Source: Bryobacterales bacterium (lineage in GTDB: Bacteria; Acidobacteriota; Terriglobia; Bryobacterales; UBA6623). Taken from it: DNA of 64,000 nucleotides. Each line of letters begins with the position of its first letter. Within the stretch, counting starts at the first letter, position 1. The notes below the pieces were generated by a model. The model did no database searches, had not been told where the DNA came from, and was given only the letters and a program-made list of their open reading frames with translations. Positions 5,761-55,957 of this stretch are shown here, in pieces. The stretch covers positions 3,488,001-3,552,000 of the forward strand of contig OY729428.2 in assembly GCA_963422375.2 (NCBI GenBank). Reading direction: 5' to 3'. Position numbers and translations under genes: made by a program.

Positions 5761-8544
5761 TCAGGGCGCGGCGAATTCGGACAGCCAGTTCAGCACGATG
5801 CGGATGCCCGGGTGCGACGGGCCACTCACCCACTCCGCGATCACGAAGCGGTCGCCGGGCCCGACGTCGTAGGTCGCGAATCGCCGTGGACCACTCAGCC
5901 TCTCGTGCGAGAAGAGCCGGAGCGGGTCTTCCATGCGAAAGCCTTCCTGCGTTCCAACCGGCACGGCGAACAGCGTATCGTCCCGGACGAAGTACAGAGC
6001 CCGGCCGTCGCTCCCCCAGCGGGCGAGCCGCCCGCCCTCGGTCGACACCTGCCAGTGCCGGTCGCCGGCCGGGAACGGCCTGACGTAGATGTTGAACTCC
6101 CCGGACTCGTTGCTCTCGTAGGCGACATACCTGCCGTTCGGCGAAAAGGCCGCGTTATCGACCGTGAAGGGGCCCTCCGGGAGGAAGTCCCCCATTTCCC
6201 AGTCCTCTCCGACCCGCTCCAGGTACGCGATCCGAGGGGACGCCCCCGGGACGACCCGCCTGCCCGGCCCGCTTCCGGCCGAGTCGGACGAGCTCCTGTC
6301 CCCCGAGCGGCGGCGCATCTGCACCAGAATATAGCGGCCGTCCCGCGACCAATCCAGAGGCTTGACCGCGCCGCCCGGCCCGGGGTACAGGGACCGCGCC
6401 GGGCTGTTCTCGTCGACGTCAACGACCGCGACCCCCGGCGTGCCGCGGTGCGAGAACGCGACCTGGCGGCCATCCGGCGACCAGACCGCGCCCGGCTCGA
6501 CCCGGTCGTCGAACGTCCGCCGCCTGATCACTTCGCGGCTCGACTCGTGCAGCCACAGTTCGACGGCACTCCCGCTGACTCCCGCGACGATTACCCGGTC
6601 GCCGGACGGCGACACGCGCGGCCCCAGAATCCGCGGCTGGGGGCGTCCCGCCGCCCCGAGCCGCCCGCCCCGACGGTCAAACCAGGAGAGGCGCATCTGC
6701 AGCGTCTCGGGAGTGTCGATGTACACCAGCGTGCCGTCCCTCGAGACCGACGGTTCCGTCGCGTCCCGAGCGATCACGAACGGCTCGCCCAAGGGCTCCA
6801 GGCCGTCCGGCGAGAACGGGAGCGCCGACAGCGCCGGCGTGAGGGCCGAGGGCTGGTACACAATGTGGCCGGACTCGGAGTAGACCGGGTCCGTGCCCTC
6901 GACCACGCGGACAGCGTCACCCGCCGCTTCGCTCGCCAAGCGGCGGGCCATGACGAAGTCTCCGTCGACGGTCCGCTCGGAATAGAGCAGCACCTGCTCG
7001 CCGTCGCTCGCGCCCACCAAGGCGAGGCTAGTGACGCTCGAACGGCGTCGCTGGGATCCCTCGAAGACGGGCTTGGGAATGCCTCCCAGCGCCGACACCG
7101 ACATCAGGGGCGCGCCCACGCGGCTGAAGACGATGGACTTCCCGTCGGGTGTCCAGGCTGCGCTGACGTGGCCAATGCCGGAATCCTCGACCAGCATCGT
7201 CGCCACCAAGCCCTCCACGGACACCCTGCCGATGCCTTGGCCGGTCACGAAGCCCACGAAACGGCTGTCGGGCGACCAGAAGACCTCCCGCGCCCCATCG
7301 GTCCCGTCGACGCGAAGGAGTTCGAGCCGGTCGAGCGGCTGCAGCCACAGGCTCCCTCCCGATCCGGTGGTGCTGAAGGCAATGAATCGCCCGTTCGGGG
7401 AGATCGCGAGCGACCCTATGCGGCGATCCGACATGCCGGCCTCGATCGGGCGCAGGGTGAAGCGTCGCAGCTGGCCGGGCCGGGCGCCGCCCCCGGTCGG
7501 AACCGCCAGGCCGGCGACGAAGGCGAGACCCACCGCGAACGCGAGACCGAGGCGCACCATCCAGCGGCGGGGCGCCACCGGGCCGCGCGCCGTAGCGGCC
7601 GGCGCCGGCGTCTCGGGCTTGCGGGCCGATGCGGAAAGGCTCCCCCCGGAAGGGACGGAGGGACGGTCCGCTTCCTCGCCTTCCCCGTCGATGAGCTGCA
7701 CGGACGTGCGCCCGCTCGCCGATCGGCGCTGCAGCAACTCGAGGTCGGCCACGAGCTCGCCGGCTTCCCGGTAGCGGTCCGCGGGCGACTTCGCAAGGCA
7801 TTTCTCGATGATCCACTCGAGCTCCATCGGCACCCGCGAGCGGAGCGAGGTGAGCGGGGCCGGAGCCTCGTTCAGGATCGAATACAGCACTGCCTGGTCG
7901 TAATGGCCCCGGAACGGCGGGTCGCCCGCCACCATTTCGTACGTCACCACGCCGAGCGACCACAGGTCGCTGCGGGGGCCGACATCCTCGCCCAGCGACT
8001 GCTCAGGAGACATGTAGGCGACCGTGCCCATGCGAGCGTCCGCCCGGGTCAGCTTGGACGCGCCCGAGATCTTGGCCAGGCCGAAGTCCATCAGCTTCAC
8101 GACGGGCCGCCCCGAGCCGTCCTGGCCGAGCATGATGTTGGACGGCTTGATGTCGCGATGCACGACGCCTGCCGCGTGGGCGGCCGCCAGGCCCTCCGCG
8201 GCCTGCCGGGCGATCTCGTAGGCTAGGTCCAGCGGCAGCGGCCCGCGCTGAATCCGCCGGTCGAGGGACTCGCCCTCCAGGTAGGCCATGGCGAGGAACG
8301 TCTCGCCGTCCTGCTCGTCGATCTCGTACACCGTGCAGATGTTGGGATGGTCGAGCGACGCGGCCGCCTGGGCTTCGCGCAGGAAGCGTTCGGCGTCGAC
8401 CCCAACGCCGGTGACTTCCTTGGAGAGGAATTTCAGCGCGACAGCGCGCTTGAGCCTCGTGTCCTCGGCCTTGTAGACGACTCCCATGCCGCCCTCACCG
8501 AGCGGCTCGAGAATCCGGTAGCGGGAGATTCGCCGGTCTCTCAT
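5761..8544 (-). CDS. Hanks-type Ser/Thr kinase with TM segment and TolB-like (PD40) beta-propeller
   Basis: GEGGMGVVY, VALKFL, HRDIKPSN, DFGLA and YMSPEQ; hydrophobic segment; repeated SPxGR/WSPDG propeller blades. Confidence 0.93.
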   Translation of the reverse strand: MRDRRISRYRILEPLGEGGMGVVYKAEDTRLKRAVALKFLSKEVTGVGVDAERFLREAQAAASLDHPNICTVYEIDEQDGETFLAMAYLEGESLDRRIQRGPLPLDLAYEIARQAAEGLAAAHAAGVVHRDIKPSNIMLGQDGSGRPVVKLMDFGLAKISGASKLTRADARMGTVAYMSPEQSLGEDVGPRSDLWSLGVVTYEMVAGDPPFRGHYDQAVLYSILNEAPAPLTSLRSRVPMELEWIIEKCLAKSPADRYREAGELVADLELLQRRSASGRTSVQLIDGEGEEADRPSVPSGGSLSASARKPETPAPAATARGPVAPRRWMVRLGLAFAVGLAFVAGLAVPTGGGARPGQLRRFTLRPIEAGMSDRRIGSLAISPNGRFIAFSTTGSGGSLWLQPLDRLELLRVDGTDGAREVFWSPDSRFVGFVTGQGIGRVSVEGLVATMLVEDSGIGHVSAAWTPDGKSIVFSRVGAPLMSVSALGGIPKPVFEGSQRRRSSVTSLALVGASDGEQVLLYSERTVDGDFVMARRLASEAAGDAVRVVEGTDPVYSESGHIVYQPSALTPALSALPFSPDGLEPLGEPFVIARDATEPSVSRDGTLVYIDTPETLQMRLSWFDRRGGRLGAAGRPQPRILGPRVSPSGDRVIVAGVSGSAVELWLHESSREVIRRRTFDDRVEPGAVWSPDGRQVAFSHRGTPGVAVVDVDENSPARSLYPGPGGAVKPLDWSRDGRYILVQMRRRSGDRSSSDSAGSGPGRRVVPGASPRIAYLERVGEDWEMGDFLPEGPFTVDNAAFSPNGRYVAYESNESGEFNIYVRPFPAGDRHWQVSTEGGRLARWGSDGRALYFVRDDTLFAVPVGTQEGFRMEDPLRLFSHERLSGPRRFATYDVGPGDRFVIAEWVSGPSHPGIRIVLNWLSEFAAP

Positions 8545-8644
8545 GCCGCGACGGGCCTCAACTCATTCTGGCGCGTGGGCCGCGAGCCGCGTTACGCTGG
8601 ACGGCATCCCGGCAGCGAGGAGGGCGGGCGGCGACAATGAATCC

Positions 8645-13633: not shown

Positions 13634-15913
13634 CTAGGCCGAGCCCAAATCGAGCCGGTAGGCACTCTTCCCGATCCGCACTACGTCGCCGCTCCCCGCC
13701 CGCAAGGGCCTGTACGGCTCCGCGTCGAGCGCGCCGAGGCGCGTGCCGCAGGTGGAATCCAAGTCCTCGATCCAGATCGCCCCGTTCTCGAGCCGGAGTC
13801 TAAGGTGGCGCCGCGATACATTCAGGTCCCGGAGACTCACGTCGCACCGATTCCTTCCCCGCCCGACCACAAGCCCCTCGGGCGACATCAAGAGACGCGG
13901 GTCCAAGGGAATTCGGCCCGAGCCGTCGAGCGGGACGAGCGCGGCGGCCACCGCGGGAGCGGCCCGCCCGATCGGAACCAAGGCCGGGCCCTGGCGGTTC
14001 ACCGGCGCGGGGACCGGCGGCGGGGAGGCGGACGCCCGGCGCCGCGCCTGCATCGGGGATGAGAGCGCCCAGCCGGCTAGGGCCGCGACCACCAGCAGGG
14101 CGAGCGCCGCGCCGATCCACGCGCTTGCCCTCGAGTCGCCCGGGGGCCTGCCCGGCCCGCCGGGCGAGTCCTCCGGCGGTTCCGCGTGCGGGGGCGCGGG
14201 GCCGGGCACGGTCGGAGGCGCTCCCCCTCCGGCAACAGGGTCGCGGGGCGGCGCCGAGGCTCCCCTGCCGCCACCGCTCCGGGAGACGGTCTCCCCTTCC
14301 TCCGGATCCGATATGCCGTCCGGATCGGGAGCCGCCGGGAGAACCCACGTGCCCGGCACGCCGACCGCGTCCATCGCCTGGTGGGTCGAAACCCATTCCC
14401 GCGAGCCTTCGCCGTGCAAGAGCTCCGCAGCGAGGGCGAAACCGAAGCGAGCGTCGCCGAAGCTGGAGTTCGGCGTCAGGAGGTGAACGGCCGCGCGCCC
14501 GACTATCTCCAGAGCCTTGGCCATGCCAATACCGACGACCGCGGGGCCCGATCGCCGGTCAGGGTGCCGCCCGCCCGCCGCGAGCAAGTAAAGGCCTTGG
14601 TTCATGATCGAAGAGTTGACATGCACGCCGCCGTGGTCCTCGTGCATCCACCGGTAATCGCTGTAGTGGTTGGGCATGCGGCCGACCCGGCGGGGATTCT
14701 GCAAGTCGCGGAGCGGCCCGGCGGGCGACCGCAGGCGCCAGATCTCGTCCGGTATATCCAAGTCCAAGCGCCCTCGCGTCTCCAGCCACGCTCGAAATCC
14801 CGCGCCAAGCACATCGGAGATCGATTCGCCAAGCGCGCCGGGCTCGTCCCTTCCGATGAGACCGCTCCCGCTTTCGACGATCCCGTGGCCGAGCTCGTGG
14901 CCGATGACTTCGGGAAACTTCGAGCCTTCGTCGGTGACCGCCAGCAGCCGCTGGCCGCTGTACCAAACCGCATTGAACTGGTCTCCGTCGCATTGGGGCC
15001 ACGTGTAGGGATTGTGGAACTTCACGCCTACCAGCCCCTGCAAGGTCCCGCCGCGTCCGTCGAAGCTGTCCATTTGCAGCGTCGTGCGGAGATACCCGTG
15101 AAACTCGCCGAACAAGTCGAAGACGGCGTTGACGGGGGCGCGAGACGACCGGCCGGTGGACTCGCTCCTCCCGAGATGCCCCGAGATCGCCCTCATGACC
15201 AGGCGAGTCGAATCGCCAATGTCCAGCGGACGACCTCTTCCGTATCCCCTGCAGGCGTCCTCAAAGTCGTAGATCCGCCGGTCAACCGCCGTGAATTCCA
15301 TGGGAAGGCGCTCGATGACGCGGCCCGAGCGGGCGTCGAGGTAGACCCGCTCGAAACGCGCGCCCGACGGGTTCGCGAACGCACCTTCGACCTCGTAGGC
15401 GAGCACGAGATCGCTGCCCGCCGGCCAGAACACCAGCCTCTGCCCGAGAACGCGTTGCGCGGGCGAGCCGGAGGCCCGGATCGCCGCGGCGAGTCCGAGC
15501 CGCGGCTCGGACCGAGGGAGGCCCAGAAACGGGTCATGCCGGCCGAGCAGGCGCGCCTCGGGGCGGTCGTCCGCCGCAACCAGGCGGGACTCCCGATTGA
15601 TCACCGGCAGGCCGCCGGCGAACTGCCTGAGAGTGAAGACGGTGCCGCGCCCGAGGCGCGCGGGTTCCGGCTCGACCAGCAGGCGGTCGGTCCGCTCCAG
15701 TCCGAGCAGGCGATGCAGCTCCCGGTTCGCCCAGCGCTGCACGGCTGCCGCATCCGCGAGGCCCGGAGGGGCCGGGACAGACAGGACCTCGGCCTCCCGC
15801 GCGACGGCGCCGCCCTCCTGGCCGCGCGCCCGGTCCGCCCCGGCCGCGAAGGCGAGCATCGTGCCCAGCCCGATGCCGGCGACGCACCGGCCCCGCCGAC
15901 TCCGGGAAGCCAT
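13634..15913 (-). CDS. Thermolysin-family (M4) metalloprotease with propeptide, Pro-rich linker, TM helix and C-terminal FHA domain
   Basis: Signal peptide; FTP (LRQFAGGLPV) and PepSY (LAYEV...YLDARSGRVI) propeptide. Catalytic NAVW, HELGH, GALGESISD and GGVHVNSS. TM WIGAALALLVVAALAGWAL; FHA motifs VVGR, VSRRH and DLDSTCGT. ATG lies 4 bp after the PP2C stop. Confidence 0.9.
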   Translation of the reverse strand: MASRSRRGRCVAGIGLGTMLAFAAGADRARGQEGGAVAREAEVLSVPAPPGLADAAAVQRWANRELHRLLGLERTDRLLVEPEPARLGRGTVFTLRQFAGGLPVINRESRLVAADDRPEARLLGRHDPFLGLPRSEPRLGLAAAIRASGSPAQRVLGQRLVFWPAGSDLVLAYEVEGAFANPSGARFERVYLDARSGRVIERLPMEFTAVDRRIYDFEDACRGYGRGRPLDIGDSTRLVMRAISGHLGRSESTGRSSRAPVNAVFDLFGEFHGYLRTTLQMDSFDGRGGTLQGLVGVKFHNPYTWPQCDGDQFNAVWYSGQRLLAVTDEGSKFPEVIGHELGHGIVESGSGLIGRDEPGALGESISDVLGAGFRAWLETRGRLDLDIPDEIWRLRSPAGPLRDLQNPRRVGRMPNHYSDYRWMHEDHGGVHVNSSIMNQGLYLLAAGGRHPDRRSGPAVVGIGMAKALEIVGRAAVHLLTPNSSFGDARFGFALAAELLHGEGSREWVSTHQAMDAVGVPGTWVLPAAPDPDGISDPEEGETVSRSGGGRGASAPPRDPVAGGGAPPTVPGPAPPHAEPPEDSPGGPGRPPGDSRASAWIGAALALLVVAALAGWALSSPMQARRRASASPPPVPAPVNRQGPALVPIGRAAPAVAAALVPLDGSGRIPLDPRLLMSPEGLVVGRGRNRCDVSLRDLNVSRRHLRLRLENGAIWIEDLDSTCGTRLGALDAEPYRPLRAGSGDVVRIGKSAYRLDLGSA

Positions 15914-15917
15914 GCAC

Positions 15918-17468
15918 TCAGCGAACTGCCGGGCGACCGGTCTGGAGCACCAGCGGCTCGCGGAACAGGACCGCACCAGTTGCAGGATCCAGGATCACGC
16001 GCTCGGAGCCACGCCCCGTAGCGACACTACCCGACCAAGCGACGACGTCCGTTCGCCCGTCCATCCGGACGACCACGAGCGAACCCTCGTCGAGCGGATC
16101 GATGTCCTCTCCGCTCGCCCGTTCCGCCAGGGCCACCGTCTCCGGGTAATCCCTCGCGGGCGGGCCGTCAACCTCAATCCGGGACGCAAGATGGCCGTCC
16201 ACGCGAATCACGCGGCTCCCCTCGGTCGTGGCAACCACTTCCGCGGCGAACACCGGCATTCCCTCGTGAGTCTGGCCGAAGCGTGAAACGGTCGTCCCGC
16301 CGATGCGGCCCGGACTGCCCTTCGGCGCGAGCGTGTCCGCGGGGCCGATCCGGCCCGCCTGCCGCAATTCGTCCTCAATCGCGCTCGCGAGGGATTCCCC
16401 GGTCTTCAGCCTCCTGTCCAGACTGACGTGCAGGCTGTCGATCGGCACGGGAGAGCCCGGCCCGCCGCCGGACTCGCTGCGCCCGCCCGATTCCGACGCC
16501 CCCTCGGCGGGGGAGGCGCCGCCCTCCCGACTACCGCCCTCCCTTGCTCCGGCCCCCTCCCGGCCCTCGGCTTGGGCCGCCAGGGAGTAGCTCGGGCCCG
16601 CCCCGCCGGCGAAGAGCGCGGTCGCGCGGCCCGCGGCCGAGGTCGCCTGGCCGCGGGCGTCCCGACCGGCCGGCAGGAGCGCCGCGGCGAGGCCCGCGCC
16701 AACGAGAGCGGCCAGCGAGAGCCAGTACCACGCGACGCGGGGCCCCGGATCGATCACCGCGAGAATCGCCGTGGTGTTGTCATGTCGCTCGAGCTCGGCC
16801 AGCTTGCCCTCGTAGGCCGCGGCGACGGCAGTCCCCGGATCGGCGGATTCGAACAGCGCGACGATCTCGCCGTCGGAAAAAATCTCCCAGAAACCGTCGC
16901 TGCAAATGACGAAGCGAGTGCCGCGCGCAAGGCGCCACCGCTTGAATTCCGCGTCCGGAGGGGCCTCGCCTCCGACGTGGGTCAGCAAGTGCGTCTGGCT
17001 CGGGTGCGTGGCCAGCTCGGCCTCCGAGATCGCGCCGCGCAGCACGTTCAGCTGCGCCATGGAGTGGTCCAGGGTGCGCACGGCGAGGCCGGCCCGCGAA
17101 TACTGCATGACGCGGCTGTCCCCGGCATGGACCGAAACGGCCTCGGAGCCCCGCACCAGCAGGGCGGCGAGCGTGGAGCGCGGATCGAGACCCGCCGCCC
17201 TGCCCGCAGCGTTGACCCGCTCGTGGCACTGGCTCACCAAGGATCGCAGGAAGTCCTCCGACCGCCAGTCGCGTCCGCGCCGGGCCCAGAGATCGGCGGC
17301 GGTGTCCACGACAGTCTGCGCGGCAAGCGAGCCGCCGCGATGACCGCCCAGCCCGTCGGCAACCAGGAACAGGGATCCGTCGCCATCGCCGGACCGCAGA
17401 ACCGTCAACCGATCCTGGTTCTCCTGCCTCTGCCCGACGTGGGTGAAGGCATGGGCGGTTGCGTTCAC
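15918..17468 (-). CDS. PP2C-family Ser/Thr phosphatase fused via TM helix to an M4-type propeptide (FTP/PepSY-like) domain
   Basis: RQENQD, VADGLGG, HAGDSR, CSDGFW and HDNTT; TM WYWLSLAALVGAGLAAALL. C-terminal SRFGQTHEGMPVFAAEVV...V.G (FTP-like) and VILDPATGAVL (PepSY-like); no HExxH. Confidence 0.85.
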   Translation of the reverse strand: MNATAHAFTHVGQRQENQDRLTVLRSGDGDGSLFLVADGLGGHRGGSLAAQTVVDTAADLWARRGRDWRSEDFLRSLVSQCHERVNAAGRAAGLDPRSTLAALLVRGSEAVSVHAGDSRVMQYSRAGLAVRTLDHSMAQLNVLRGAISEAELATHPSQTHLLTHVGGEAPPDAEFKRWRLARGTRFVICSDGFWEIFSDGEIVALFESADPGTAVAAAYEGKLAELERHDNTTAILAVIDPGPRVAWYWLSLAALVGAGLAAALLPAGRDARGQATSAAGRATALFAGGAGPSYSLAAQAEGREGAGAREGGSREGGASPAEGASESGGRSESGGGPGSPVPIDSLHVSLDRRLKTGESLASAIEDELRQAGRIGPADTLAPKGSPGRIGGTTVSRFGQTHEGMPVFAAEVVATTEGSRVIRVDGHLASRIEVDGPPARDYPETVALAERASGEDIDPLDEGSLVVVRMDGRTDVVAWSGSVATGRGSERVILDPATGAVLFREPLVLQTGRPAVR

Positions 17469-17508
17469 CGGCGTTCCCCTCGCATTCTTGCAAACCCGCC
17501 GCGATCCC

Positions 17509-18621
17509 TCAGATCCCGAGAATGGCGAGCAGCACGCTGCCAGTGAAGGATTCCCCGCCCGCGGCGTCGACGAATTGGCCTTTGCCTACCTGCGCAAGCT
17601 GACGCAGGAACAAGTCGGCCTTCCGGCGATCTCGGTTGTTGTCGTTCAGGTTCGCCCTGACTGTGGAGACGAATTGGCCCGGGCTTGATGCGAACAGCTG
17701 GGCTGCCCGAATCGCGGCCGCCTCCCTGTCCGGATACGCCGCGTTGTCCGTGATCGCGATGACGTAGCGGCGCTCGCTCTCGGGTCTCCAGTTGGAGTTG
17801 ATCGCCATCTCCACGGCCGTCGCAACCATCTCGGGTCCGTCCCTGTTGAGTCTGTTCCTAGTTCGGTCCATTTCCGGCCTGAGCGTGGAGACGAACGAGC
17901 GGACCTCGGCAAGACGGGACGTCGGGACAATCCTTCTCTCGTAGATCGGCGGGACCCATGTGCGGTCACCGAACGCGATGACCCCGATGCCTACGGACGG
18001 GGCCAAGCTGTCCAGGAGCTGTGCCAGCGTCCCGATTTCATTCTTCAGGCCCGCGATCTGGTCGGTCATGCTGGAGGTCACGTCGAGGCAGATCACGAGG
18101 TCCATGTCGGGAATCCGGGCTTTTGCGAGAGCGGCCTCCAGTTCGCTCACATTCTTCCGCGATTCCGCGAGGCTGGCCTTGATCTCGTCGACTTCCCGCT
18201 CGAGGGCCCGTTCCCTAGCGAGGTTGCCTGCCTCCTTCTTCCTGCCCGCCTCTGCGGCCTTCCTGCTCGCCTCTGCCGCGGCCAGGACCTCCTGAAGTTC
18301 CGCGATCTTCTGCTGGGCTTGCTCGACTTGGGCGAGAGCTTCGTCCAGGGCTCCGGCCAGCGCATCGCTGTCTTCGGCGTCGCTCCGCACTTGCGCCAGC
18401 ACGGCCTCAAGGCTGCGCGCCCTCTCCGCGACACGGTCGCGGTCCCGGATCGCTTGGGCCAGCTCCGCCTGCACGGCCTCGACCTGGTCGCGCGAGTCAC
18501 CGGTATTCGGGAAGAACGGCAAGGCCATGATCGACAGCAGGATGAACGCGCCCATGCCTGAGGCGAACAGGTCCAGCGCTGAGATGGAGAAGACGTTGAG
18601 TTCTCGCCGACGAAATGTCAT
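17509..18621 (-). CDS. Membrane-anchored coiled-coil + von Willebrand factor A domain protein
   Basis: N-terminal RRR plus hydrophobic segment containing Asp (SALDLFASGMGAFILL); long Ala/Glu-rich coiled coil; MIDAS-like DLVICLDVTSSM and IAITD. Confidence 0.85.
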   Translation of the reverse strand: MTFRRRELNVFSISALDLFASGMGAFILLSIMALPFFPNTGDSRDQVEAVQAELAQAIRDRDRVAERARSLEAVLAQVRSDAEDSDALAGALDEALAQVEQAQQKIAELQEVLAAAEASRKAAEAGRKKEAGNLARERALEREVDEIKASLAESRKNVSELEAALAKARIPDMDLVICLDVTSSMTDQIAGLKNEIGTLAQLLDSLAPSVGIGVIAFGDRTWVPPIYERRIVPTSRLAEVRSFVSTLRPEMDRTRNRLNRDGPEMVATAVEMAINSNWRPESERRYVIAITDNAAYPDREAAAIRAAQLFASSPGQFVSTVRANLNDNNRDRRKADLFLRQLAQVGKGQFVDAAGGESFTGSVLLAILGI

Positions 18622-19284
18622 GGCCCCGTGCCGGGTTGCAACCGCCTCGTCATCTAGCGCCCCCGTCGAAGTCACGCCCGGGAGGGCGCGACGCCAAGCC
18701 GCGACTGCCTGCTCGACCAGCCAAGCGCCGAGCCTTGAGCTCGGTCGAGCAGGCGGGACGCACCGGTTTCCGAGTTTCCGCTTGGCACCATTGTGCGCAC
18801 CAGGACCGGGTCCCGCTGATTCGGCTCGCGGAACCGGCAGACGCCCGCATGGACCCGAAGCCGGAGCGCGTCGCCGCCAGGGGACCGGACCGGAATTCCG
18901 CGAATGGCGAGTCGAGCCCGCCTCGAAGGGGCCCGGCTACTTCGCCGGCAGTGCAAGCAGCGGGTCTCCTCCGCATGGAGGCGGCCGCGCGACGGCTCCG
19001 CCTGAACTGACACAGCGCCATCGCGACCTTTACGCTGCCACGCAGATCTCTGGCTCGGCCCGGCACTCGACCATCCCCCTTCAAGACGCACCGCACTGCG
19101 AGACGGTTTCTCAAGGGACTGCCCTGGCTTGGGACCTCGGACAGTCTGGGCTGGCGGCAGCAAGACGGACTCGAACGACCAACGCCGGCCCGGCGAGGAT
19201 CCAGTCGGCCTCTCGCGAAGCGGCGCTAGAAAGGATGTGTACGCAGAATCGGCGGCCGGTGCGTCTGATGGCACCGAGACCGGA

Positions 19285-21942
19285 ATGTCGCAGACGGGCC
19301 CCGAAGAACGCGGTCATCGCGCCGCCCCGCTCCCAACCGGACCGGATGCTCCGGAATCCGGCGCGGCGGAGGACTCCGGCCCGCCGACAGACGCCTACCG
19401 GCGCGGGCCGTACCTGCCCCCCGGCACGGTACTGAACCGGGCGTACGCCACTCGGTCCGTAGTGGGACAGGGTGGCTTCGGCGTCGTCTACGAAGCCACG
19501 CACTTGCAGCTGGAGCATCCGGTAGCGATCAAGGAGTACTTCCCGGAGGAATTCTGCGTCCGCGTGGGCGATGCCGTCCATGCCAAGAGCACGGTTGCCA
19601 AGGCTTGTTTCGACGACGGCATGAAGCGCTTCCGCGAGGAAGCGAAACGCCTGATCGAACTCAGGGGCTCGCCCAACGTCGTGGCGTATCGAGAGTTCTT
19701 CCTTGAGAACGGCACAGCCTACATCGTCATGGACTTCGAGGACGGCATGCCGCTGTCGGAACTTCTCGCGAGGCGGGAGGCGGCGGGCCGGGGATTCGAG
19801 GAGCGCGACCTAGTCGCGGTCATGGTTCCCGTGCTGAGAGGCCTGCAGAGGCTACACCAAGCCGGCATTTTCCACCGCGATGTCAAGCCCGGGAACATCC
19901 TGATCCGACGCAGAACCGAGCAGGCCGAGGAGGTTCCTGTCCTGATCGATTTCGGCGCGGCGAAGCAAGCGTTCGCCGAGCACTCCAGGACGAACGCACC
20001 GCACACCCCCGGGTACGCGGCCCTCGAGCAGGTCGGGGAAGGGGATCTCGGACCTTGGACAGACGTGTACGCGGCGGGGGCCGTCATGTGGCGAATGGTC
20101 GCTTGCGGGAGCTCCGCAAGCGGCTCCGATGGTCCCGTGCGTGTGGAGAGCCGGGTGATGGCGAGGTTGCGCGGGCGACCCGATCCGATGCCTAGGGCAG
20201 TCGAACTCGGGCGAGGGCGATTCTCTCCGAGACTTCTCGAATTGATTGAACAGTGCTTGGAGTTGAGGGAGTCCGACCGCGTAAAAGATTGCACTAAAGT
20301 CCTGCAAGTGCTCCAATCTATTCACAGAAATAGAGGTCCAGATTCCGGTTTAATAGATCTGAATATTCGTAACGATTGGACTGCTAAATCGGCAGTCTAC
20401 AATATGGATATGGACACCAAGTCAAGCGGAATATGGCGGTCAAAAATAATGGCATTAGCGCTTGTATTTGCAGTGATAGGATGCGTAGAATCAGCGGTTA
20501 TAATCAAGAATTCATGGCACGACTCGACCCGGACTGAGGCAGCCGACTCGACACCTTCCACGGTGGGGAGCGGAAACAAAGCAACGGACCTGCCGACTTC
20601 CTTGCCAGCGAAGTCCCAGGGAAAATCCTCGTCTGCGCCGAGCATCCCAAGCTTTAGAGTCGAAGTCGAACCTTCGGATGCCGCTGTGTTCTTCTCCAAC
20701 GAGGCTCAACCGTACACGGCGGGAATACCTCTGGCCCTAGGGACGTACGAGCTCGATTTCCGAGCCGTCGGGCACCAGCCTCTGAGTACGTCAATCCAGC
20801 ACGACGGGTCGGGCACGGTGCCGAGAGTCGCATTGCAGTCTCTGGAAGTGCCGCCGCTCACGCCAAGGGCTCGGAGCCCCTTCAAGCCGACTGTTCAGCC
20901 TCGCCCCGCAGAGGCCGCGCAGCGGCCGAAGCCCGGACAGGATCCCGAGCAGTCCAGACCGGCTTCCACGGACATACTCGGCACCGGCCCATCCAATGCG
21001 TCGACAGCTCCGAACACGCAGGCGATTCATGCCGGGCCAAGCCCGTCCGCTCTCCCGCCCGAGGTCGATCCGGCACCTGCCGCGCACGTCGTGCCGCCGA
21101 CCGTCGCCGAGCCGGACCTCGGCGAACTGGCGAAGGACGCATGGCAAGAAGCGAGGGATTCAGACAGCCCGGAAGTCCTGGGAGCTTTCATTGACACATT
21201 CGATGGCAGGCGAGGTGCCAGTCTCTGGGTCACACTGGCAAAGGACCGCCTAGCTAAGCTGCCGGCGTCGCCGGTGGCTCCGACGAACGCGCCGGTGCCC
21301 CCGAAGCAGCCGATTCGCATCGGAGGGAACATCGCAAGGGCCCGACTCACGCACCAGATCCGGCCGCGCTATCCTCCGCACGCCCGGCAGGCTCGTGTCG
21401 AAGGCACAGTCAAACTGTCGGCAATCATTGCACGGGACGGGACGGTCCAGAGTCCTCAAGCTACCTCCGGCCACCCGCTCTTGATCCCAGCGGCGTTGGC
21501 CGCCGTCAAGCAGTGGCGCTATCGGCCGACCCTGCTGAACGGAGTGCCCGTCGAGGTTCTCACAAGCATCGAATTGAATTTCACGTTGGGGGACAGGCCT
21601 GATACAACGACCCCGGACAAGAGGCAGTCTCCAAGTCCAAGGCCCGCTCCGAGGCTCGATCAGCCCAAGCGAGACTTCACCAAGCCGCAGCTAGCGGTTC
21701 AGGTCAAACCGTCGTACCCAATGACCGCTCGCCGGGCGCGAGTGGAGGGCACGGTTAGACTCCGCGTGACCATTGCAAAGGACGGAACAATCAAGGAGGC
21801 TAGGGCCATGTCAGGTCATCCTATTCTGGTGCAATCTGCGGTCAATGCAATGAAGAAATGGCGTTACTTTCCGACAATAAAAAACGGAATTTCCGTCGAT
21901 ATTGTCACGAATATAGACGTTAAATTCGAACTGAATCCATGA
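19285..21942 (+). CDS. Hanks-type Ser/Thr kinase with TM, PEGA-like segment and two TonB C-terminal domains
   Basis: GQGGFGVVY, AIKEYFP, HRDVKPGN, IDFG and TPGYAALEQ; TM IMALALVFAVIGC. Two YP..AR.ARVEGTV...DG...SGHP.L...A..A.K.WRY.PT..NG repeats. Start uncertain (ORF is open from 19129). Confidence 0.88.
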   Translation: MSQTGPEERGHRAAPLPTGPDAPESGAAEDSGPPTDAYRRGPYLPPGTVLNRAYATRSVVGQGGFGVVYEATHLQLEHPVAIKEYFPEEFCVRVGDAVHAKSTVAKACFDDGMKRFREEAKRLIELRGSPNVVAYREFFLENGTAYIVMDFEDGMPLSELLARREAAGRGFEERDLVAVMVPVLRGLQRLHQAGIFHRDVKPGNILIRRRTEQAEEVPVLIDFGAAKQAFAEHSRTNAPHTPGYAALEQVGEGDLGPWTDVYAAGAVMWRMVACGSSASGSDGPVRVESRVMARLRGRPDPMPRAVELGRGRFSPRLLELIEQCLELRESDRVKDCTKVLQVLQSIHRNRGPDSGLIDLNIRNDWTAKSAVYNMDMDTKSSGIWRSKIMALALVFAVIGCVESAVIIKNSWHDSTRTEAADSTPSTVGSGNKATDLPTSLPAKSQGKSSSAPSIPSFRVEVEPSDAAVFFSNEAQPYTAGIPLALGTYELDFRAVGHQPLSTSIQHDGSGTVPRVALQSLEVPPLTPRARSPFKPTVQPRPAEAAQRPKPGQDPEQSRPASTDILGTGPSNASTAPNTQAIHAGPSPSALPPEVDPAPAAHVVPPTVAEPDLGELAKDAWQEARDSDSPEVLGAFIDTFDGRRGASLWVTLAKDRLAKLPASPVAPTNAPVPPKQPIRIGGNIARARLTHQIRPRYPPHARQARVEGTVKLSAIIARDGTVQSPQATSGHPLLIPAALAAVKQWRYRPTLLNGVPVEVLTSIELNFTLGDRPDTTTPDKRQSPSPRPAPRLDQPKRDFTKPQLAVQVKPSYPMTARRARVEGTVRLRVTIAKDGTIKEARAMSGHPILVQSAVNAMKKWRYFPTIKNGISVDIVTNIDVKFELNP

Positions 21943-22628: not shown

Positions 22629-24139
22629 GGGAATTATATATCTGAGTGCCGACAACGCCATATCCGACTAGAACTGCTGTGAGCAGGGAGGTGGGTGTCG
22701 AGCTGGGGTCATGCGAGTGCGGCCGCGGCGGGCACAGAGGGGGGGTGGGGGGTGGGATCGTATCTGAATCGAGCCTGCCAGCGGATTGGACGAGGAAGGG
22801 ACTAGAGAGGCCGCCTCGCATGCCCCGGTGAAACCCGGTTGGCGGTGGCAGGGCACCCCTTGCAAGCCGCTTGCAGGCCCTGCGAGGGCCGAAGACAGCG
22901 GATCCCCGGCGCTCGACGGCCTGCATGGACGGTCCGGGCCGGACCGGGGTCGCGCCGGGGCATTCCGGATCCGGTGCGACCCTCGTACCGAGCGTGCAGC
23001 GCGCGCCCGCAGCGGGCTGCCGCGCTCGGCGCGGCGGGCGCCGCTCAGGCCGCGACCGCGGCCTTGCCGGTCAGCTGCCGGTAGGTCAGCGTCCGGCCGA
23101 CCAAGCCCCGCGCCATGCGCCGCATCCGTTCCGCCGTGTCGCAGTCGCGGTCGTTGCGCCGTCCCGCGAACTCCGTGAGGTAGCGGCCGAGATGACGGAC
23201 GCTCATCCGGTGATAGGTTCCGTACAGGCCGCGCTCGAACAGGGACCGGAACGACTCGATGCCGTTCGTATGCGCTGCCCCGCGCACGTACTCGCCGCCG
23301 GAGTGCCTGACGGCTTCGTGCGCGAACTCCGCCATGCCGGCGCAGGCCGCCGCCTCGTCGGAGCGGACCTGCGCGCCCGGCGCGACCCGGCCGCGCACGA
23401 AGCCCTGCAGGTCGCCCTTGGCGGTGGCCGGCAGCGGCCGCGCAGCCACTGCGTTCGTGGCGCGGTCCCGCGCCCCCGCCACGGGCGTCTTGCCGACGGG
23501 CCCGCGCCCGGCGCGGGCCTTCTTCCTCTCGTGCTTGTTGCGTTCCTTGCCGCCGACGCAGGTCTCGTCCACCTCCACCGGGCCGGCGAACAGGCCCTGA
23601 TCCCGCTCCCGGCACGCGCGGATGCGGTGCGCCAGGTGCCAGGCCGACTTCCGGCTGATGCCCGGGTCGCGGTGCAGCTTCATGCTCGAGACGCCCTTGA
23701 TGCCGGTGGTCGGCAGGAACAGGGCGACGGCCCGGGTGCGGTAGCCGAGCTTGGTGTCGGCCATCACGCTGCCGGTGCGCACCGAAAAGCGCTTGCCGCA
23801 GCCGCGGCAACGGTACGGCATCGAAGGGTGGGCCGCGTCGGACTGCACGCTGGAGCCGCGGCAGCGGGGGCACGCGGGACCGTCCGGCCAGCGCATGGAG
23901 GCGAACCACTTTTCCGCGGATTCGTCATCGGGGAACATGGCGATCACTTCGATCAATGTGATGCCTTTACGGAACCACTTTCCGGGACCTGATTTCTTCA
24001 TTTACGGTATCCCCTACTGGAACTATTCTACCAAGAAATACCACAGAATTTCAACGGAAAATCGGAAGAAATATGAAATCTTATAATGGCTTGATAATTT
24101 GCCGACTTGATTCCCTCGGCACTCAGATATATAATTCCC
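22629..24139 (-). mobile_element. IS1595-family insertion sequence
   Basis: Perfect 24-bp IRs at 22629-22652 and 24116-24139; 8-bp direct repeat AATGAATT at 22621-22628 and 24140-24147. Confidence 0.93.
23045..24001 (-). CDS. IS1595-family transposase (open frame but degenerate at conserved residues)
   Basis: RWPDGPACPRC...YRCRGC zinc ribbon, VEVDET, SDEA, HTNGIESF and HL.RYL.EF. Confidence 0.88.
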   Translation of the reverse strand: MKKSGPGKWFRKGITLIEVIAMFPDDESAEKWFASMRWPDGPACPRCRGSSVQSDAAHPSMPYRCRGCGKRFSVRTGSVMADTKLGYRTRAVALFLPTTGIKGVSSMKLHRDPGISRKSAWHLAHRIRACRERDQGLFAGPVEVDETCVGGKERNKHERKKARAGRGPVGKTPVAGARDRATNAVAARPLPATAKGDLQGFVRGRVAPGAQVRSDEAAACAGMAEFAHEAVRHSGGEYVRGAAHTNGIESFRSLFERGLYGTYHRMSVRHLGRYLTEFAGRRNDRDCDTAERMRRMARGLVGRTLTYRQLTGKAAVAA

Positions 24140-24147
24140 AATGAATT

Positions 24148-25180
24148 CCTGATTACCCACAAGACTCAGCCAAGGTTAGGAGACGGTAAGGCATGGGCGG
24201 GGTGCGCACGGAGGCGTGGAGCAGGCGGGGGATCAGCACCGCCAGATCGTAGCGGCGGTTGAAGCGGTAGCAGAACTCGGCGAGGTAGCGCGGCAGGTGC
24301 TTGCCGTCGAGTGCATGGCAGGTTCCCGCCAGGGACTGCTTGACGTTCGCCAGCATCGTGTTGACCCGGACGAAGCGGGAATCCCCGCAGCTCCGCTGCC
24401 CACCTGCGGTGACGGTCGGCACGTGCTCGCAGCCGGCGTCGGCCACGCCCCGCAAGCAGGCCAAGCCGTCGGAATGCACCTCCGTGCCGGGCTGCAGGTG
24501 CCGCCCGGCCCATGCTGCCAGCGTCTTCTTGCGGAAGCCCGCCACGCTGCTCAGGCGCATCCTTGCCGGCTGGCCGGCGGCGCTGACCTGCACGGCGGCC
24601 ACGAACGGCGTCTTGCCCGCCGCGCCGCGCCCGCGCTTGTCGCCGCTCCGCTCCCCGCCCCGGTAGGCGTCGTCCACCTGCACGATGCCGCCCGGCGGCA
24701 CGCGCTCGTCGCGCTCCTTCATCACTTGCAGGAGCTTGTGCTTCATCTTCCAAGCCGTGTTCCGGCTCACGCCCAGCTGCCGCGCCAGTTCCAGCGACGA
24801 AACGCCGTGCTAGCCCTGCGTCAGCAGGTGGAGCGCCAGGAACCAGACGGTCAGCGGCAGCTTGGTGGCGGCCAAGATCGTGCCGGCGACGAGGGAGGTC
24901 CGGCGGTGGCAGGCGTTGCACTGCCAGAGCTTGCGGGAGCGGATGCGGCAGTGCCGGCGGGAGCCGCACTCCGGGCAGCGGAAGCCGTCCGGCCAGCGGG
25001 CGTTGCAGACGGCCTGCTCGCATGGCCCCTCGCTGCCGTAGCGCTGCAGGAACTTGCCCAGGCTGAGTCCCTTCTGGAATTGCACGCGATTGCGTTTCAT
25101 CTGCTATCCCCTTTCCTAGCAGAGATTTCCGACCTCCTTCAGTATAGCATATCCTCGGCTGACGTTCGTTGGTAATCAGG
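24148..25180 (-). mobile_element. IS1595-family element (second subgroup, ISSod11-like)
   Basis: Imperfect 24-bp IRs cctgattacc...tcagcc and ggctga...ggtaatcagg; flanked by AATGAATT at 24140-24147 and 25181-25188. Confidence 0.9.
24153..25100 (-). pseudogene. IS1595-family transposase with in-frame TAG at 24810-24812
   Basis: ORFs 24810..25100 and 24153..24770 share a frame: RWPDGFRCPEC, QVDDAY.GG, KRGRGAAGKTPFV, SDGL and RYLAEFCYRFNRR. Confidence 0.9.
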
Positions 25181-25263: not shown

Positions 25264-26163
25264 TTGAAGACTTCGAAGCAGAACGGTCCCGGGAAGTGGT
25301 TTCGTAAAGGCATCACCTTGATCGCAGTGATTGCCATGTTCCCCGATGACGAATTCGCGGAAGAGTGGTCCGCCTCTATGCGCTGGCCGGACGGTCCGGC
25401 ATGCCCCCGCTGCCGCGGCTCCAGCGTGCAGTCCGGCGCGGCCCACCCTTCGATGCCGTACCGTTGCCGCGGTTGCGGCAAGCGCTTTTCCGTGCGCACC
25501 GGCAGCGTGATGGCCGACACCAAGCTCGGCTACCGCGTCCGGGCCGTCGCCATGGTCCTGCTGACCGCCGGCCTCAAGGGCGTCTCCGGCATGAAGCTCC
25601 ACCGCGACCCGGGCATCAGCCGGAAGTCGGCCCGGTGGAAGTGGACGAGACCTACGTCGGCGGCAAGGAGCGCGACAAGCACGAGAGCAAGAAGGGCCGG
25701 GCGCGGGCCGGCCGGCAAGACCCCCGTGGCGGGTGCGCGGGACCGCGCCACGAACGAAGTGGCCGCCCGGCCGCTGCCGGGCACGACCGAGGGCGACCTG
25801 CAGGGCTTCGTGCGCAGCCGGGTCGCGCCGGGCGCGCAAGTCCGCTCCGACGAGGCGGCGGCATACGCCGGCATGGCGGAGTTCCCGCGCGAGGGCGTCA
25901 AGCACTCCGGCGGCGAGTACGTGCGGGGGACCGCGCATACGAACGGCATCGAGTCATCTTGGTCCCTGTTCAAGCGCGGCCTCTACGAAACCTATCACCG
26001 GATGAGCGTCCGTCACTTGGGCCGCTACCTCGCGGAGTTCGCGGGACAGCGAAACGCCCCCAACTGCGACACGGCGGAACGGATGCGGCGCAAGGCGCGG
26101 GGCTTGCTCGGCAAGACGCTGACCTACCGGCAACTGGTCGGCAAGGCCGCGGTCGCGGCCTGA
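25264..26163 (+). pseudogene. IS1595-family transposase with internal deletion
   Basis: Paralog of 23045-24001. A deletion of about 61 nt between cggcc microhomologies near 25632 puts VEVDETY out of frame; a second indel near 25695 restores the frame. Confidence 0.85.
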
Positions 26164-39731: not shown

Positions 39732-39772
39732 TTGAGAATCCCTCCTCACGCGGGCCGCGCCCACATTACAAG

Positions 39773-39800
39773 AGGATACCCGCGATAGGATACCCGCGAT
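39773..39800. repeat. 14-bp tandem duplication (aggatacccgcgat x2) overlapping palindrome cccgcgatcgcggg
   Basis: Read directly at 39773-39786 and 39787-39800. Confidence 0.85.
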
Positions 39801-39847
39801 CGCGGGACGGAAGGCCGGCCGGGTTTCCGCGAATCGCCCGCGCGCGC

Positions 39848-44976: not shown

Positions 44977-45729
44977 TCACCCGCTGAGGGTGAAGTTCAC
45001 GTCGATATTCGTGAGGACCTCGACGGCCTCGCCGTTGAGCAGGGTCGGCCTGTAGCGCCACTGCTTCACGGCCGCCAGGGCCGCGGGGACGAGAAGCGGG
45101 TGGCCGGACATGACCTCGAGCTTCTGGATCGAGCCGTCCTTGGAAATGATCGCCGACAGCTTGACCGTGCCCTGGATGCGGGCCTGGCGGGCGAGTGGCG
45201 GGTACTGCGGTCGCACCTGGCGCGTCAGGCGCGCCTTGGCGACGTTGCCACCGACGCGAATGCGCTTGGGCGGCGCCTTTTTCTTCACCGGCGGCGGGGG
45301 GGGGGGCGGCGGGGCCGCCGTGGGCGCGCTCGATATGATGCTGCCCAGCACGCCGCCGACCGTACCGCCGACGCTGCCGCCGGGCACGCCGCCGACGACC
45401 CCGGCGATGCCGGCGCTAGGGGCGGCCATATCCTCTTCGATGATCGCGACCTGGTCGGGGATGGCGACCGGCTGGGTCAGCGCCCCGGTGTCGAACTCGC
45501 GCGGAACCGGCTTGACCTTCACCACGGCCGCGGGAGGCGGCGGGGGCGGGGGCGGGGGCGGGGGCGCCGTCAGGAAGCTGACGAACTCCGCGGCGGGCAG
45601 TTCGTAGTAGTTGAGCAGCGGGATCAGGAGCATGACCCCAACGAGCATCAGCTGGGCGACCGTGGACAGCACCACCGACCACCGCGAGGTGTTCTTGACC
45701 CTGTTCTCCATCAACGAGTCTTCAAACAT
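44977..45729 (-). CDS. tonB: Energy transducer TonB
   Basis: N-terminal TM, poly-Pro tracts, GVVGGVPGG linker and C-terminal YPPLARQARIQGTV domain. Confidence 0.93.
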   Translation of the reverse strand: MFEDSLMENRVKNTSRWSVVLSTVAQLMLVGVMLLIPLLNYYELPAAEFVSFLTAPPPPPPPPPPPAAVVKVKPVPREFDTGALTQPVAIPDQVAIIEEDMAAPSAGIAGVVGGVPGGSVGGTVGGVLGSIISSAPTAAPPPPPPPPVKKKAPPKRIRVGGNVAKARLTRQVRPQYPPLARQARIQGTVKLSAIISKDGSIQKLEVMSGHPLLVPAALAAVKQWRYRPTLLNGEAVEVLTNIDVNFTLSG

Positions 45730-45762
45730 GATTGCTAGCCCCTCCTAGGCACCGTGCCGGTT

Positions 45763-55933: not shown

Positions 55934-55957
55934 GGCGCGCGACAGACCCGGCGGGAG

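Follow-up and report, generated by a model that had tools for sequence, protein, structure and literature searches.

The window analysed here is a stretch of 64,000 nucleotides from the genome of a Bryobacterales bacterium (Acidobacteriota), and the subject of this report is a cluster of four genes at positions 13634-21942. On the minus strand, open reading frames (ORFs) encoding a von Willebrand factor A (vWA) protein, a PP2C-type phosphatase and an M4 protease follow one another in that order, with 40 bp between the stop codon of the vWA gene and the PP2C gene and 4 bp between the stop codon of the latter and the ATG of the protease gene, and a Hanks-type Ser/Thr kinase gene lies divergently on the plus strand (Table 1). 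This layout had been proposed, along with the domain content of each product, in an original prediction made from the letters of the DNA; the ORFs agree with the former, and Pfam and NCBIfam models recover every one of the domains. The central finding is that the phosphatase carries, behind a transmembrane (TM) helix, a genuine M4-type propeptide that is a paralogue of the one preceding the protease itself, and the protease in turn is predicted to end in a cytoplasmic forkhead-associated (FHA) domain of the kind that binds phosphothreonine (pThr).

Protease, phosphatase and their placement in the membrane

Several lines of evidence place the protease in the M4 family. Pfam Peptidase_M4_C matches P0001 (the translation of the window ORF; P0005 denotes the database form beginning at ATG 15913) with an E-value of 1.3e-31 and 110 bits against a cut-off of 24.4, the N-terminal Peptidase_M4 model reaching only 16.9 bits against 22.4, and the HELGH, GALGES and GGVHVNS motifs by which the family is recognized are invariant in 17/17 aligned proteases. 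A profile search of the PDB returns neutral protease and thermolysin at E-values of about 1e-40, and the structural model (mean pLDDT 70, with ordered domains at approximately 80-90) matches thermolysin/neutral protease with a Foldseek TMt of 0.66 and contains a helix at residues 6-28 of P0005 that corresponds to the predicted signal peptide. At the opposite end of the molecule, Pfam detects an FHA domain (E 2e-11, 44.6 bits against a cut-off of 20.7) whose GR and SR(R/Q)H motifs are present in 16/16 sequences that reach the domain (P0017 ends before it), and in which the Asn of the NGT motif, a position that varies across the family, is Cys in the window. The fold of this tail lies close to the FHA domain of FhaA (Rv0020c; Foldseek TMt 0.82-0.84). 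The NCBIfam model FhaB_Rv0019c scores 39.3 bits against a cut-off of 125, and TIGR03354, the TagH/Fha model, reaches 18.7 bits where 120.25 are required, so that the tail does not count as an FHA domain of the type VI secretion system (T6SS) type. Judged by sequence, fold and comparison, then, the protein is a thermolysin-type protease predicted to be anchored in the inner membrane with a cytoplasmic, pThr-binding FHA tail.

The phosphatase (P0002) is equally well defined in its cytoplasmic part. Pfam PP2C_2 matches it with an E-value of 1.6e-18 and 67.4 bits, the residues D19, D38-G39, D191-G192 and D230-N231, characteristic of PPM phosphatases, are invariant in 16/16 aligned sequences, and the PP2C fold of the model (mean pLDDT 78.9) resembles STP, Stp1, PstP and PppA (Foldseek TMt 0.78-0.88) as well as chain 6ihr_A (VIA-align Z 29.4). 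Following the TM helix, the model shows a disordered linker (residues 268-342) and then a confident ectodomain (343-507). This ectodomain is a genuine FTP + PepSY propeptide of the M4 type and a paralogue of the protease's own. Firstly, the two share 30% identity over 138 aa (BLASTP, E 6e-5) and align by hhalign at 97.8% (E 1.2e-12, 153 columns; the second profile held 4 of 13 chosen sequences, owing to a strict motif filter). Secondly, strands and helices occur in the same order in the models of both. Thirdly, a VIA-align wide search, from which the fold match came, superimposes the ectodomain on 3nqz_A, the propeptide chain of autoprocessed vibriolysin MCP-02 (Z 13.9, rmsd 3.1, 157/175 residues, over model residues 341-509), and on the Aspergillus M36 prodomain 4k90_B (Z 11.5). 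Foldseek, queried with the whole phosphatase model, returned only PP2C chains in its top 50, and a PDB sequence search with the ectodomain alone gave nothing significant, a thermolysin precursor (5a3y) appearing at an E-value of 0.36. The window phosphatase terminates 11 residues past the last PepSY strand, and 16/16 aligned members end 4-14 residues past it, which would be near the point at which a propeptide in cis is cut; in autoprocessed M4 complexes, the C-terminal tail of the propeptide sits in the active-site cleft. The original prediction proposed that the propeptide of the protease is carried by the phosphatase, and this proposal is upheld by the BLASTP, hhalign and VIA-align results as well as by the natural fusions and propeptide-less proteases described below. 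The accompanying view of where the propeptide resides was correct for the phosphatase and incomplete for the window, in which the protease has a copy of its own.

In a hydrophobicity scan, each of the four proteins shows a single TM segment, and the protease has its N-terminal signal peptide besides; a weaker stretch of the protease (residues 665-683 of P0001), scoring 1.65 where the threshold was 1.6, was left uncounted. Since PP2C, kinase and FHA domains need the cytoplasm, and since a signal peptide precedes the M4 domain, the FTP/PepSY, M4 and TonB_C portions are predicted to lie outside. Natural single-chain forms lend independent support; one of them, P0018 (1135 aa), reads PP2C-TM-FTP/PepSY-M4-TM-FHA, with 7 Lys/Arg ahead of its first TM segment and 4 behind its second. 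The vWA protein has four Lys/Arg ahead of its TM segment and none behind it, and the spacer that follows is coiled-coil, Pro-rich or Cys-rich among relatives and variable in length; on these grounds its N-terminus is most likely inside and its vWA domain most likely periplasmic. The scan, domain logic and the natural fusions together favour the single-pass arrangement, with its division into inside and outside parts, that had been suggested for all four proteins.

Table 1. Genes and features of the cluster in window coordinates.
Feature	Position	Strand	Details
M4 gene: signal peptide-own FTP/PepSY propeptide-M4-TM-FHA	13634..15913	-	759 aa from ATG 15913; ORF open from GTG 15976
FHA domain	13670..13870	-	Pfam, residues 703-769; GR and SRRH motifs kept
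Protease TM helix	14057..14125	-	residues 618-640; hydrophobicity scan; long helix 595-626 of P0005 in model
M4 catalytic domain	14342..15292	-	HELGH (360-364), GALGES Glu ligand, GGVHVNS His
Protease's own propeptide, FTP + PepSY-like	15293..15799	-	approximately residues 60-228 of P0001
Predicted Sec signal peptide	15833..15913	-	residues 22-48 of P0001; Arg-rich n-region, hydrophobic core, AGA, read from sequence
PP2C gene: PP2C-TM-disordered Gly/Ser/Glu-rich linker-FTP/PepSY ectodomain	15918..17468	-	516 aa (P0002)
Phosphatase ectodomain, M4/M36-type propeptide (FTP + PepSY)	15942..16442	-	residues 343-509
Phosphatase TM helix	16668..16736	-	residues 245-267; hydrophobicity scan; helix 245-263 in model
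PP2C (PPM) domain	16749..17468	-	residues 1-240; metal-binding Asp motifs NQD, ADGLGGH, SDGFW, HDNTT, invariant in the family
vWA gene: short N-tail-invariant TM motif-coiled coil-vWA	17509..18621	-	P0003; MIDAS-like DVTSS; ORF open from GTG 18675, ATG 18621 the probable start
vWA domain, predicted periplasmic	17512..18105	-	VWA_2 E 6.7e-7 (Pfam)
vWA N-terminal TM motif, nearly invariant	18493..18615	-	FRRRELNVFSISALDLFASGMGAFILLSIMALPFFPNTGDS; alignment of 17 sequences, two phyla
Kinase gene: Hanks Ser/Thr kinase-TM-PEGA-like-2x TonB_C	19285..21942	+	P0004; ORF open from TTG 19129
Kinase domain	19444..20304	+	residues 106-392; Pkinase E 8.4e-36, 124 bits
Kinase TM helix	20446..20505	+	hydrophobicity scan
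Two TonB C-terminal domains	21343..21933	+	TonB_C 4e-38, 130 bits over two stretches

Distribution and natural variants of the cluster

Conservation was assessed in the window, in L017, in L022-L043 and in the first L015 copy, 25 loci in all, drawn from 21 genomes. They belong to Acidobacteriota and Gammaproteobacteria metagenome-assembled genomes (MAGs) or isolates that are mutually related and not independent. The protease carries an FHA tail in 24/25 of these loci and a kinase is present in 23/25; a family-type PP2C lies directly upstream or is fused in 21/25, its FTP/PepSY being detectable by tblastn in 18/25, and a vWA gene is found in 19/25. An extra FHA gene (16/25) and a second, small PP2C (12/25) recur as well. 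Conservation of the neighbourhood had been named beforehand as a test of the proposed system, and the figures for the PP2C, vWA and kinase genes answer it in the affirmative. The bacterium's own 6-Mb genome holds nine Pkinase matches, three PP2C matches and a single vWA of the cluster type; given these numbers and the recurrence of the gene order elsewhere, the clustering exceeds what chance would produce.

Searches of genomes and proteins revealed a patchy distribution. Strong full-length matches to the protease occur in 7/24 other genomes of the genus and in none of 16 genomes searched from other genera of the order, in which the best match (2.7e-20) covers the M4 part only. P0001 used as a single query against genome contigs yielded no relative; with an alignment as the query, species-representative genomes yielded 22 loci, in records labelled Bryobacterales, Terriglobia, Candidatus Rariloculaceae, Gammaproteobacteria, Candidatus Azophilus, Pseudomaricurvus and Cellvibrionaceae. 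A whole-library profile search returned 634 proteins at E-values up to 1e-30, and 75 of the 171 proteins examined (P0005-P0175) combine M4 and FHA domains. Five of these 75 also carry an N-terminal PP2C, and P0090, a fragment without FHA, is a sixth fused protein. In a plasmid collection searched in protein mode, 0/244 matching records cover at least 80% of the protease, all 244 being classical M4 enzymes of less than 28% identity.

The history of the family was approached with a tree of the catalytic domain (103 rows; a quick IQ-TREE run with support from the Shimodaira-Hasegawa-like approximate likelihood ratio test, SH-aLRT, only), for which 122 pooled proteins were reduced to 104 with at least 250 aligned residues and then to 103 of at least 270 aa. 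The FHA-linked enzymes make up one side of a branch (91/103 rows, SH-aLRT 98), and fused forms occupy three separately supported places. A Terriglobia row is nested among Pseudomonadota rows with a support of 99, which argues for horizontal transfer. Taken together, the locus comparison and the tree point to a module that is conserved and horizontally spread.

Natural variants of the gene structure bear directly on the relationship between phosphatase and protease. In L036 (1137 aa), L040 (1159 aa), P0018, P0019, P0047, P0068 and P0071, the two are fused as PP2C-TM-propeptide-M4-TM-FHA, and each fused chain contains one FTP/PepSY unit only, of the phosphatase type (43% identity in P0018). In L030, L037 and L038, the protease consists of a signal peptide followed by the mature domain, the sole propeptide being that on the upstream phosphatase. 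These single-chain fusions and phosphatase-only propeptides indicate that the phosphatase-borne propeptide belongs to this protease. Split genes with a duplicated propeptide, as in the window, represent the majority form. Reduced forms are found in L035 (TM-propeptide-M4-TM-FHA without PP2C), in L029 (a soluble PP2C of 266 aa), and in L025 and the first L015 copy, both without PP2C. The M4-FHA and kinase genes abut in L029 and L035, and all cluster genes share one strand in two Cellvibrionaceae genomes. Two further observations concern loss of integrity: in one congener (L018/L027, G020), approximately 1.5 kb of inserted DNA interrupts the M4-FHA gene and leaves two ORFs, and in another (L012/L028, G001), P0017 (735 aa) stops short of the FHA domain. 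The module thus decays in some lineages.

Many loci contain, in addition, a sister sub-module consisting of a small PP2C, followed by a gene of X-TM-FHA layout, a vWA gene and a kinase. Among 11 X-TM-FHA proteins scanned, a Trypsin_2 domain was detected in six (L012, L024, L031, L035, L037, L040) and not in the other five (L021, L020, L036, L042, L030). The four-gene system envisaged in the original prediction is present in the window; it is a reduced version, fuller loci adding two more genes, for a small PP2C and for a trypsin-like protease-TM-FHA protein. In the window's own genome, a PP2C + X-TM-FHA pair and a second kinase-PEGA-2xTonB_C lie approximately 700 kb from the cluster (L021).

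The vWA protein, the kinase and the surroundings of the cluster

The N-terminal segment of the vWA protein, R-R/S-R-E-I-N-I-F-S-M-S-A-L-D-L-F-A-S-G-M-G-A-F-I-L-L...P-F-F-P-N-T-G-D-S, is near-invariant from Acidobacteriota to Gammaproteobacteria (vWA genes of L011-L043); it places an invariant Asp inside the membrane, and the spacer behind it varies freely. Near-invariance together with an intramembrane Asp suggests that the segment has a specific intramembrane partner or function. Kinship with ExbD/TolR/MotB, considered on account of the TM Asp and the 'E-I-N-V' lead-in, was rejected, as no ExbD match was obtained with Pfam at E-values up to 10; a profile of the motif run against 54,687 ORFs of the own genome recovered only the vWA gene, the next match (E 0.3) not being ExbD. 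When the Atlas was searched with the vWA protein, nothing but unnamed vWA clusters came up.

The kinase is of the Hanks type, with the motifs VAIKEY, HRDVKPGN and DFGAAK intact as read from the sequence. The region following its TM helix appears PEGA-like on alignment with PEGA-bearing paralogues, and the protein, whose N-terminus is the kinase, ends in two TonB_C domains. The first of these (21343-21651) shares 71% of amino acids, and 75.7% of nucleotides over 292 nt, with the C-terminus of a TonB gene (44977-45744) that sits with exbB-exbD-exbD in the same window. A kinase with a borrowed TonB_C might sense the exposure of TonB boxes on outer-membrane transporters. Kinases neighbouring the module carry TonB_C, PEGA, FGE-sulfatase, Sel1 or no recognized ectodomain. 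The TonB_C ectodomain had been counted as part of the system; because the ectodomains of module kinases differ in this way, it is better regarded as specific to this genome's version and not as core. The second kinase-PEGA-2xTonB_C of the own genome occupies L021 14733-16820. Base composition of the kinase gene is unusual in that the segment encoding the TM helix and juxtamembrane linker (20329-20628) has a GC content of 0.48 and a GC content at third codon positions (GC3) of 0.49, against a window GC of approximately 0.68, and in that GC3 over the whole gene is 0.69, against 0.83-0.85 in neighbouring genes.

The cluster stands at the border of an insertion-rich patch. Three ORFs for IS1595-family transposases (DDE_Tnp_IS1595), one of them without a zinc ribbon, lie just past the kinase at 23045-24001(-), 24153-24770(-) and 25264-26163(+), and an rve-integrase ORF lies close to the window start (1995-2780, -). 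A scan for promoters and terminators gave counts at the level of shuffled sequence. A second Hanks kinase gene, 5 kb from the cluster (5761-8562, -), encodes a protein of 933 aa that ends in beta-propeller repeats resembling PD40/WD40 and shares only about 29% identity with the cluster kinase. Three long ORFs of high GC3 (259, 467 and 941 aa), at 55178-57361(-) and 37266-40091(-), match no Pfam family or only, and weakly, DUF3604. Outside the window, five of the nine Pkinase matches of the genome fall within approximately 100 kb (G000:C2:2746647-2850721), and this Ser/Thr signalling island also includes a small PP2C together with two FHA genes, one of them of X-TM-FHA layout (L021).

Proposed control, competing explanations and relation to known systems

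The anatomy described above suggests a membrane signalling module in which cytoplasmic phosphorylation is probably coupled, through the membrane, to the latency of the protease on the other side. That phosphorylation would select the partner of the FHA tail and so gate proteolysis was the hypothesis of the original prediction. We favour a reading in which the kinase controls the protease and the propeptide and PP2C act jointly as an 'off' latch, and judge it to have an even chance of being correct. In this scheme, the receptor kinase would sense a periplasmic cue, in this genome through its TonB_C and PEGA-like domains, and would autophosphorylate on Thr, whereupon the FHA tail of the protease would dock on the pThr of the kinase. 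Outside the membrane, the phosphatase-borne propeptide would bind the protease domain as chaperone and inhibitor, and this contact would hold PP2C beside the FHA-bound phospho-site, which PP2C would erase. If both the propeptide-protease and the FHA-pThr contacts form, PP2C would thus come to lie next to the mark that it erases, and inhibition by the propeptide and erasure by PP2C would together constitute the latch. When the kinase is strongly active, or when contact with the propeptide is lost, an active, kinase-associated protease would be set free to cut periplasmic targets that may be presented by the vWA protein. Binding and inhibition of the protease by the phosphatase ectodomain would accord with the fusions and the propeptide-less proteases. 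As to the carrier of the pThr site read by the FHA domain, the kinase is the most plausible candidate because neither the protease linker nor the phosphatase linker contains a conserved Thr; the comparison also took in the flanks of the kinase, and the one Thr that never varies is structural, in the P+1 loop of the kinase. Control most likely runs from kinase to protease, given that kinase ectodomains vary, that the conserved non-signalling parts are periplasmic, and that no cytoplasmic output gene (regulator, sigma factor) recurs across the loci; the periplasmic protease with an FHA tail in the second sub-module was counted in favour of the same direction.

A number of findings speak against this reading. 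The window protease keeps its own propeptide, which makes the phosphatase-borne one a second copy that folding does not require and whose role is harder to define than in the loci with propeptide-less proteases. The Pfam FTP model scores just below its cut-off of 21 on P0002 (E 3.8e-4, 20.7 bits; relatives exceed it, with 26.2 bits in L011 and 22.7 bits in P0018). The lack of a conserved Thr in either linker, noted above, leaves both without an evident FHA ligand. Topology was derived from the hydrophobicity scan, domain logic and the natural two-TM fusions, and charged residues flanking the TM helix of the phosphatase show a weak bias. Within 10 kb, PP2C is missing in 4/25 loci and vWA in 6/25; among the misses are L041 (a contig of 6.4 kb), L033 (a fragment of a gene) and L027 (the insertion-split gene). 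Finally, because the loci come mostly from related MAGs, the locus counts overstate their independence.

The same anatomy and the same fusions would also serve for a signal travelling in the opposite direction. According to this explanation, which we consider unlikely, the propeptide-protease contact is itself the sensor, and its loss through self-activation, or through foreign proteases or envelope damage that cleave or degrade the propeptide, would uncouple PP2C from the phospho-protein bound by FHA and raise a cytoplasmic phospho-signal. Signalling across the membrane by regulated proteolysis is established elsewhere, as in RseA/DegS and BlaR1. For the present loci, however, a report to the cytoplasm finds no recurrent cytoplasmic output gene to receive it, and the variable kinase ectodomains resemble an input side. 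A further explanation, to which we give still less credence, regards the propeptide as a tethered foldase or inhibitor serving maturation only, with PP2C, FHA and kinase regulating matters other than protease activity, for instance the localization or turnover of the complex. M4 propeptides such as those of LasB and vibriolysin do work as chaperones, also in trans, and the propeptide-less proteases found beside propeptide-bearing phosphatases need a foldase. Maturation leaves unexplained, however, why a foldase should be joined to a phosphatase and a protease to a pThr reader, including in three places of the tree, and why the sister trypsin-like protease should have an FHA tail and a PP2C of its own.

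Two further explanations fit the evidence poorly. The patchy occurrence of the protease (7/24 congeners), the presence of several copies in some genomes, the interleaving of Acidobacteriota and Pseudomonadota rows in the tree and the IS1595 transposases beside the kinase are what an anti-phage or inter-bacterial conflict system, with kinase signalling and proteases as effectors, might display; such a system is nevertheless improbable, in that PADLOC gives only generic kinase (mad6, PD-T4-6) and PP2C matches and none for the protease, no plasmid record covers at least 80% of the protease, and the conserved core is without nuclease, NTPase or toxin genes. Least probable by our estimate is a cytoplasmic switch of the TerY-P/ArnA-ArnB type, in which a vWA protein located inside would be phosphorylated by the kinase and bound by FHA with the protease as a passenger, since, although vWA + PP2C + kinase triads and FHA-vWA pairs are known, the vWA protein here has 4 Lys/Arg ahead of its single TM segment and none behind, its linkers are variable and spacer-like, only about eight of its residues would be cytoplasmic, and no ter genes occur among the window ORFs scanned.

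The favoured reading, control of the protease by the kinase through a propeptide-PP2C latch, may be extended to the fuller loci. There, thermolysin- and trypsin-type proteases, each wired via one TM helix to a pThr reader and each with its own PP2C, of which one bears the inhibitor of its protease outside the membrane, might form a new class of trans-envelope device in which cytoplasmic phosphorylation arms or disarms a proteolytic cascade together with vWA proteins, a logic that would recall the vWA-serine protease zymogens of complement. We advance this extension tentatively and doubt it more than we credit it.

Comparison with characterized systems reveals both kinship and difference. Classical M4/M36 zymogens (thermolysin, vibriolysin MCP-02, LasB, fungalysin), being proteases controlled by their own propeptides, share with the present enzyme the M4 catalytic domain and the FTP + PepSY propeptide fold; in contrast to them, the mature enzyme here is predicted to stay anchored in the membrane, with FHA as its cytoplasmic end, a separate anchored PP2C bears a further propeptide (the sole one in some genomes), and the tree sets the FHA-linked enzymes apart on one side. 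Bacterial Ser/Thr kinase-PP2C-FHA modules control cytoplasmic or membrane-proximal targets. In the mycobacterial PknA/PknB-PstP-FhaA/FhaB(FipA) module, a membrane Hanks kinase with an ectodomain is accompanied by an anchored PP2C, part of which lies outside the cytoplasm, and by a TM protein whose FHA domain is cytoplasmic; that module serves cell-wall growth genes and is not known to include a protease, propeptide or vWA. The FHA domain described here is closest to FhaA and the FhaB_Rv0019c model, and the PP2C fold is close to PstP, whereas none of the mycobacterial cell-wall growth genes is found among the window ORFs scanned. In the threonine phosphorylation pathway of the T6SS, a kinase (PpkA), a PP2C (PppA) and an FHA protein (Fha1) act together at the inner membrane, and the kinase carries a vWA-like domain in the periplasm. 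The fold of PppA ranks among those nearest to the present phosphatase (Foldseek TMt 0.78, VIA-align Z 26.4), but the FHA domain here is the tail of a protease and not a soluble scaffold. Membrane-tethered PepSY domains that partner an extracytoplasmic enzyme or sensor are known from YpeB (with SleB) and YycI, which, unlike the phosphatase, are without a cytoplasmic enzyme domain; the ectodomain gives weak fold matches to 5boi_A (Z 7.8) and 2o3o_A (Z 7.5), in a Z range that VIA-align calls common.

TerY-P triads consist of co-located vWA, PP2C and Ser/Thr kinase genes, and the three corresponding genes of the cluster likewise adjoin within 8.3 kb; the vWA domain here, predicted to be periplasmic behind a TM helix, is not the cytoplasmic vWA of the TerY type. 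Domain models found neither T6SS families nor ter genes among the window ORFs scanned, no TerY-specific model having been run, and the absence of both from the window, claimed at the outset, holds to that extent. A vWA-STK-FHA-PP2C operon has been described in Deinococcus (DRA0331-0334; preprint), and an FHA-vWA pair in archaea (ArnA-ArnB; PMC6509490). TerY-P, DRA0331-0334 and ArnA-ArnB resemble the cluster in the co-location of vWA, Ser/Thr kinase, PP2C and FHA genes and differ in that their vWA and FHA proteins are cytoplasmic partners, whereas the vWA domain here is predicted to be periplasmic and FHA and PP2C are joined via TM helices to periplasmic protease parts. None of the classical M4 zymogens and of the T6SS, mycobacterial, TerY-P, DRA0331-0334 and ArnA-ArnB systems is known to join a protease or propeptide to a phospho-module. 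A literature search likewise found no publication describing this layout, in line with the claim of novelty made in the original prediction, and the main text of a 2025 survey of bacterial PP2C architectures, searched by term, contains neither 'PepSY' nor 'FTP' nor 'peptidase'.

What is new in the present cluster is that the eraser of a phospho-mark carries the inhibitor of a protease and that the protease itself is attached to the domain reading this mark, on what are predicted to be opposite faces of the membrane. The family is sizeable in metagenomes, as indicated by the 75 M4 + FHA proteins among 171 examined, and it is open to testing at the bench, since the module is also present in a cultured Cellvibrionaceae isolate, whose locus (L042) has the complete operon on one strand. 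Should the coupling prove true, the module would offer a compact means of placing extracytoplasmic proteolysis under phospho-control, or of reporting proteolysis to the cytoplasm, without a second messenger, and PepSY/FTP domains would gain a concrete regulatory role.

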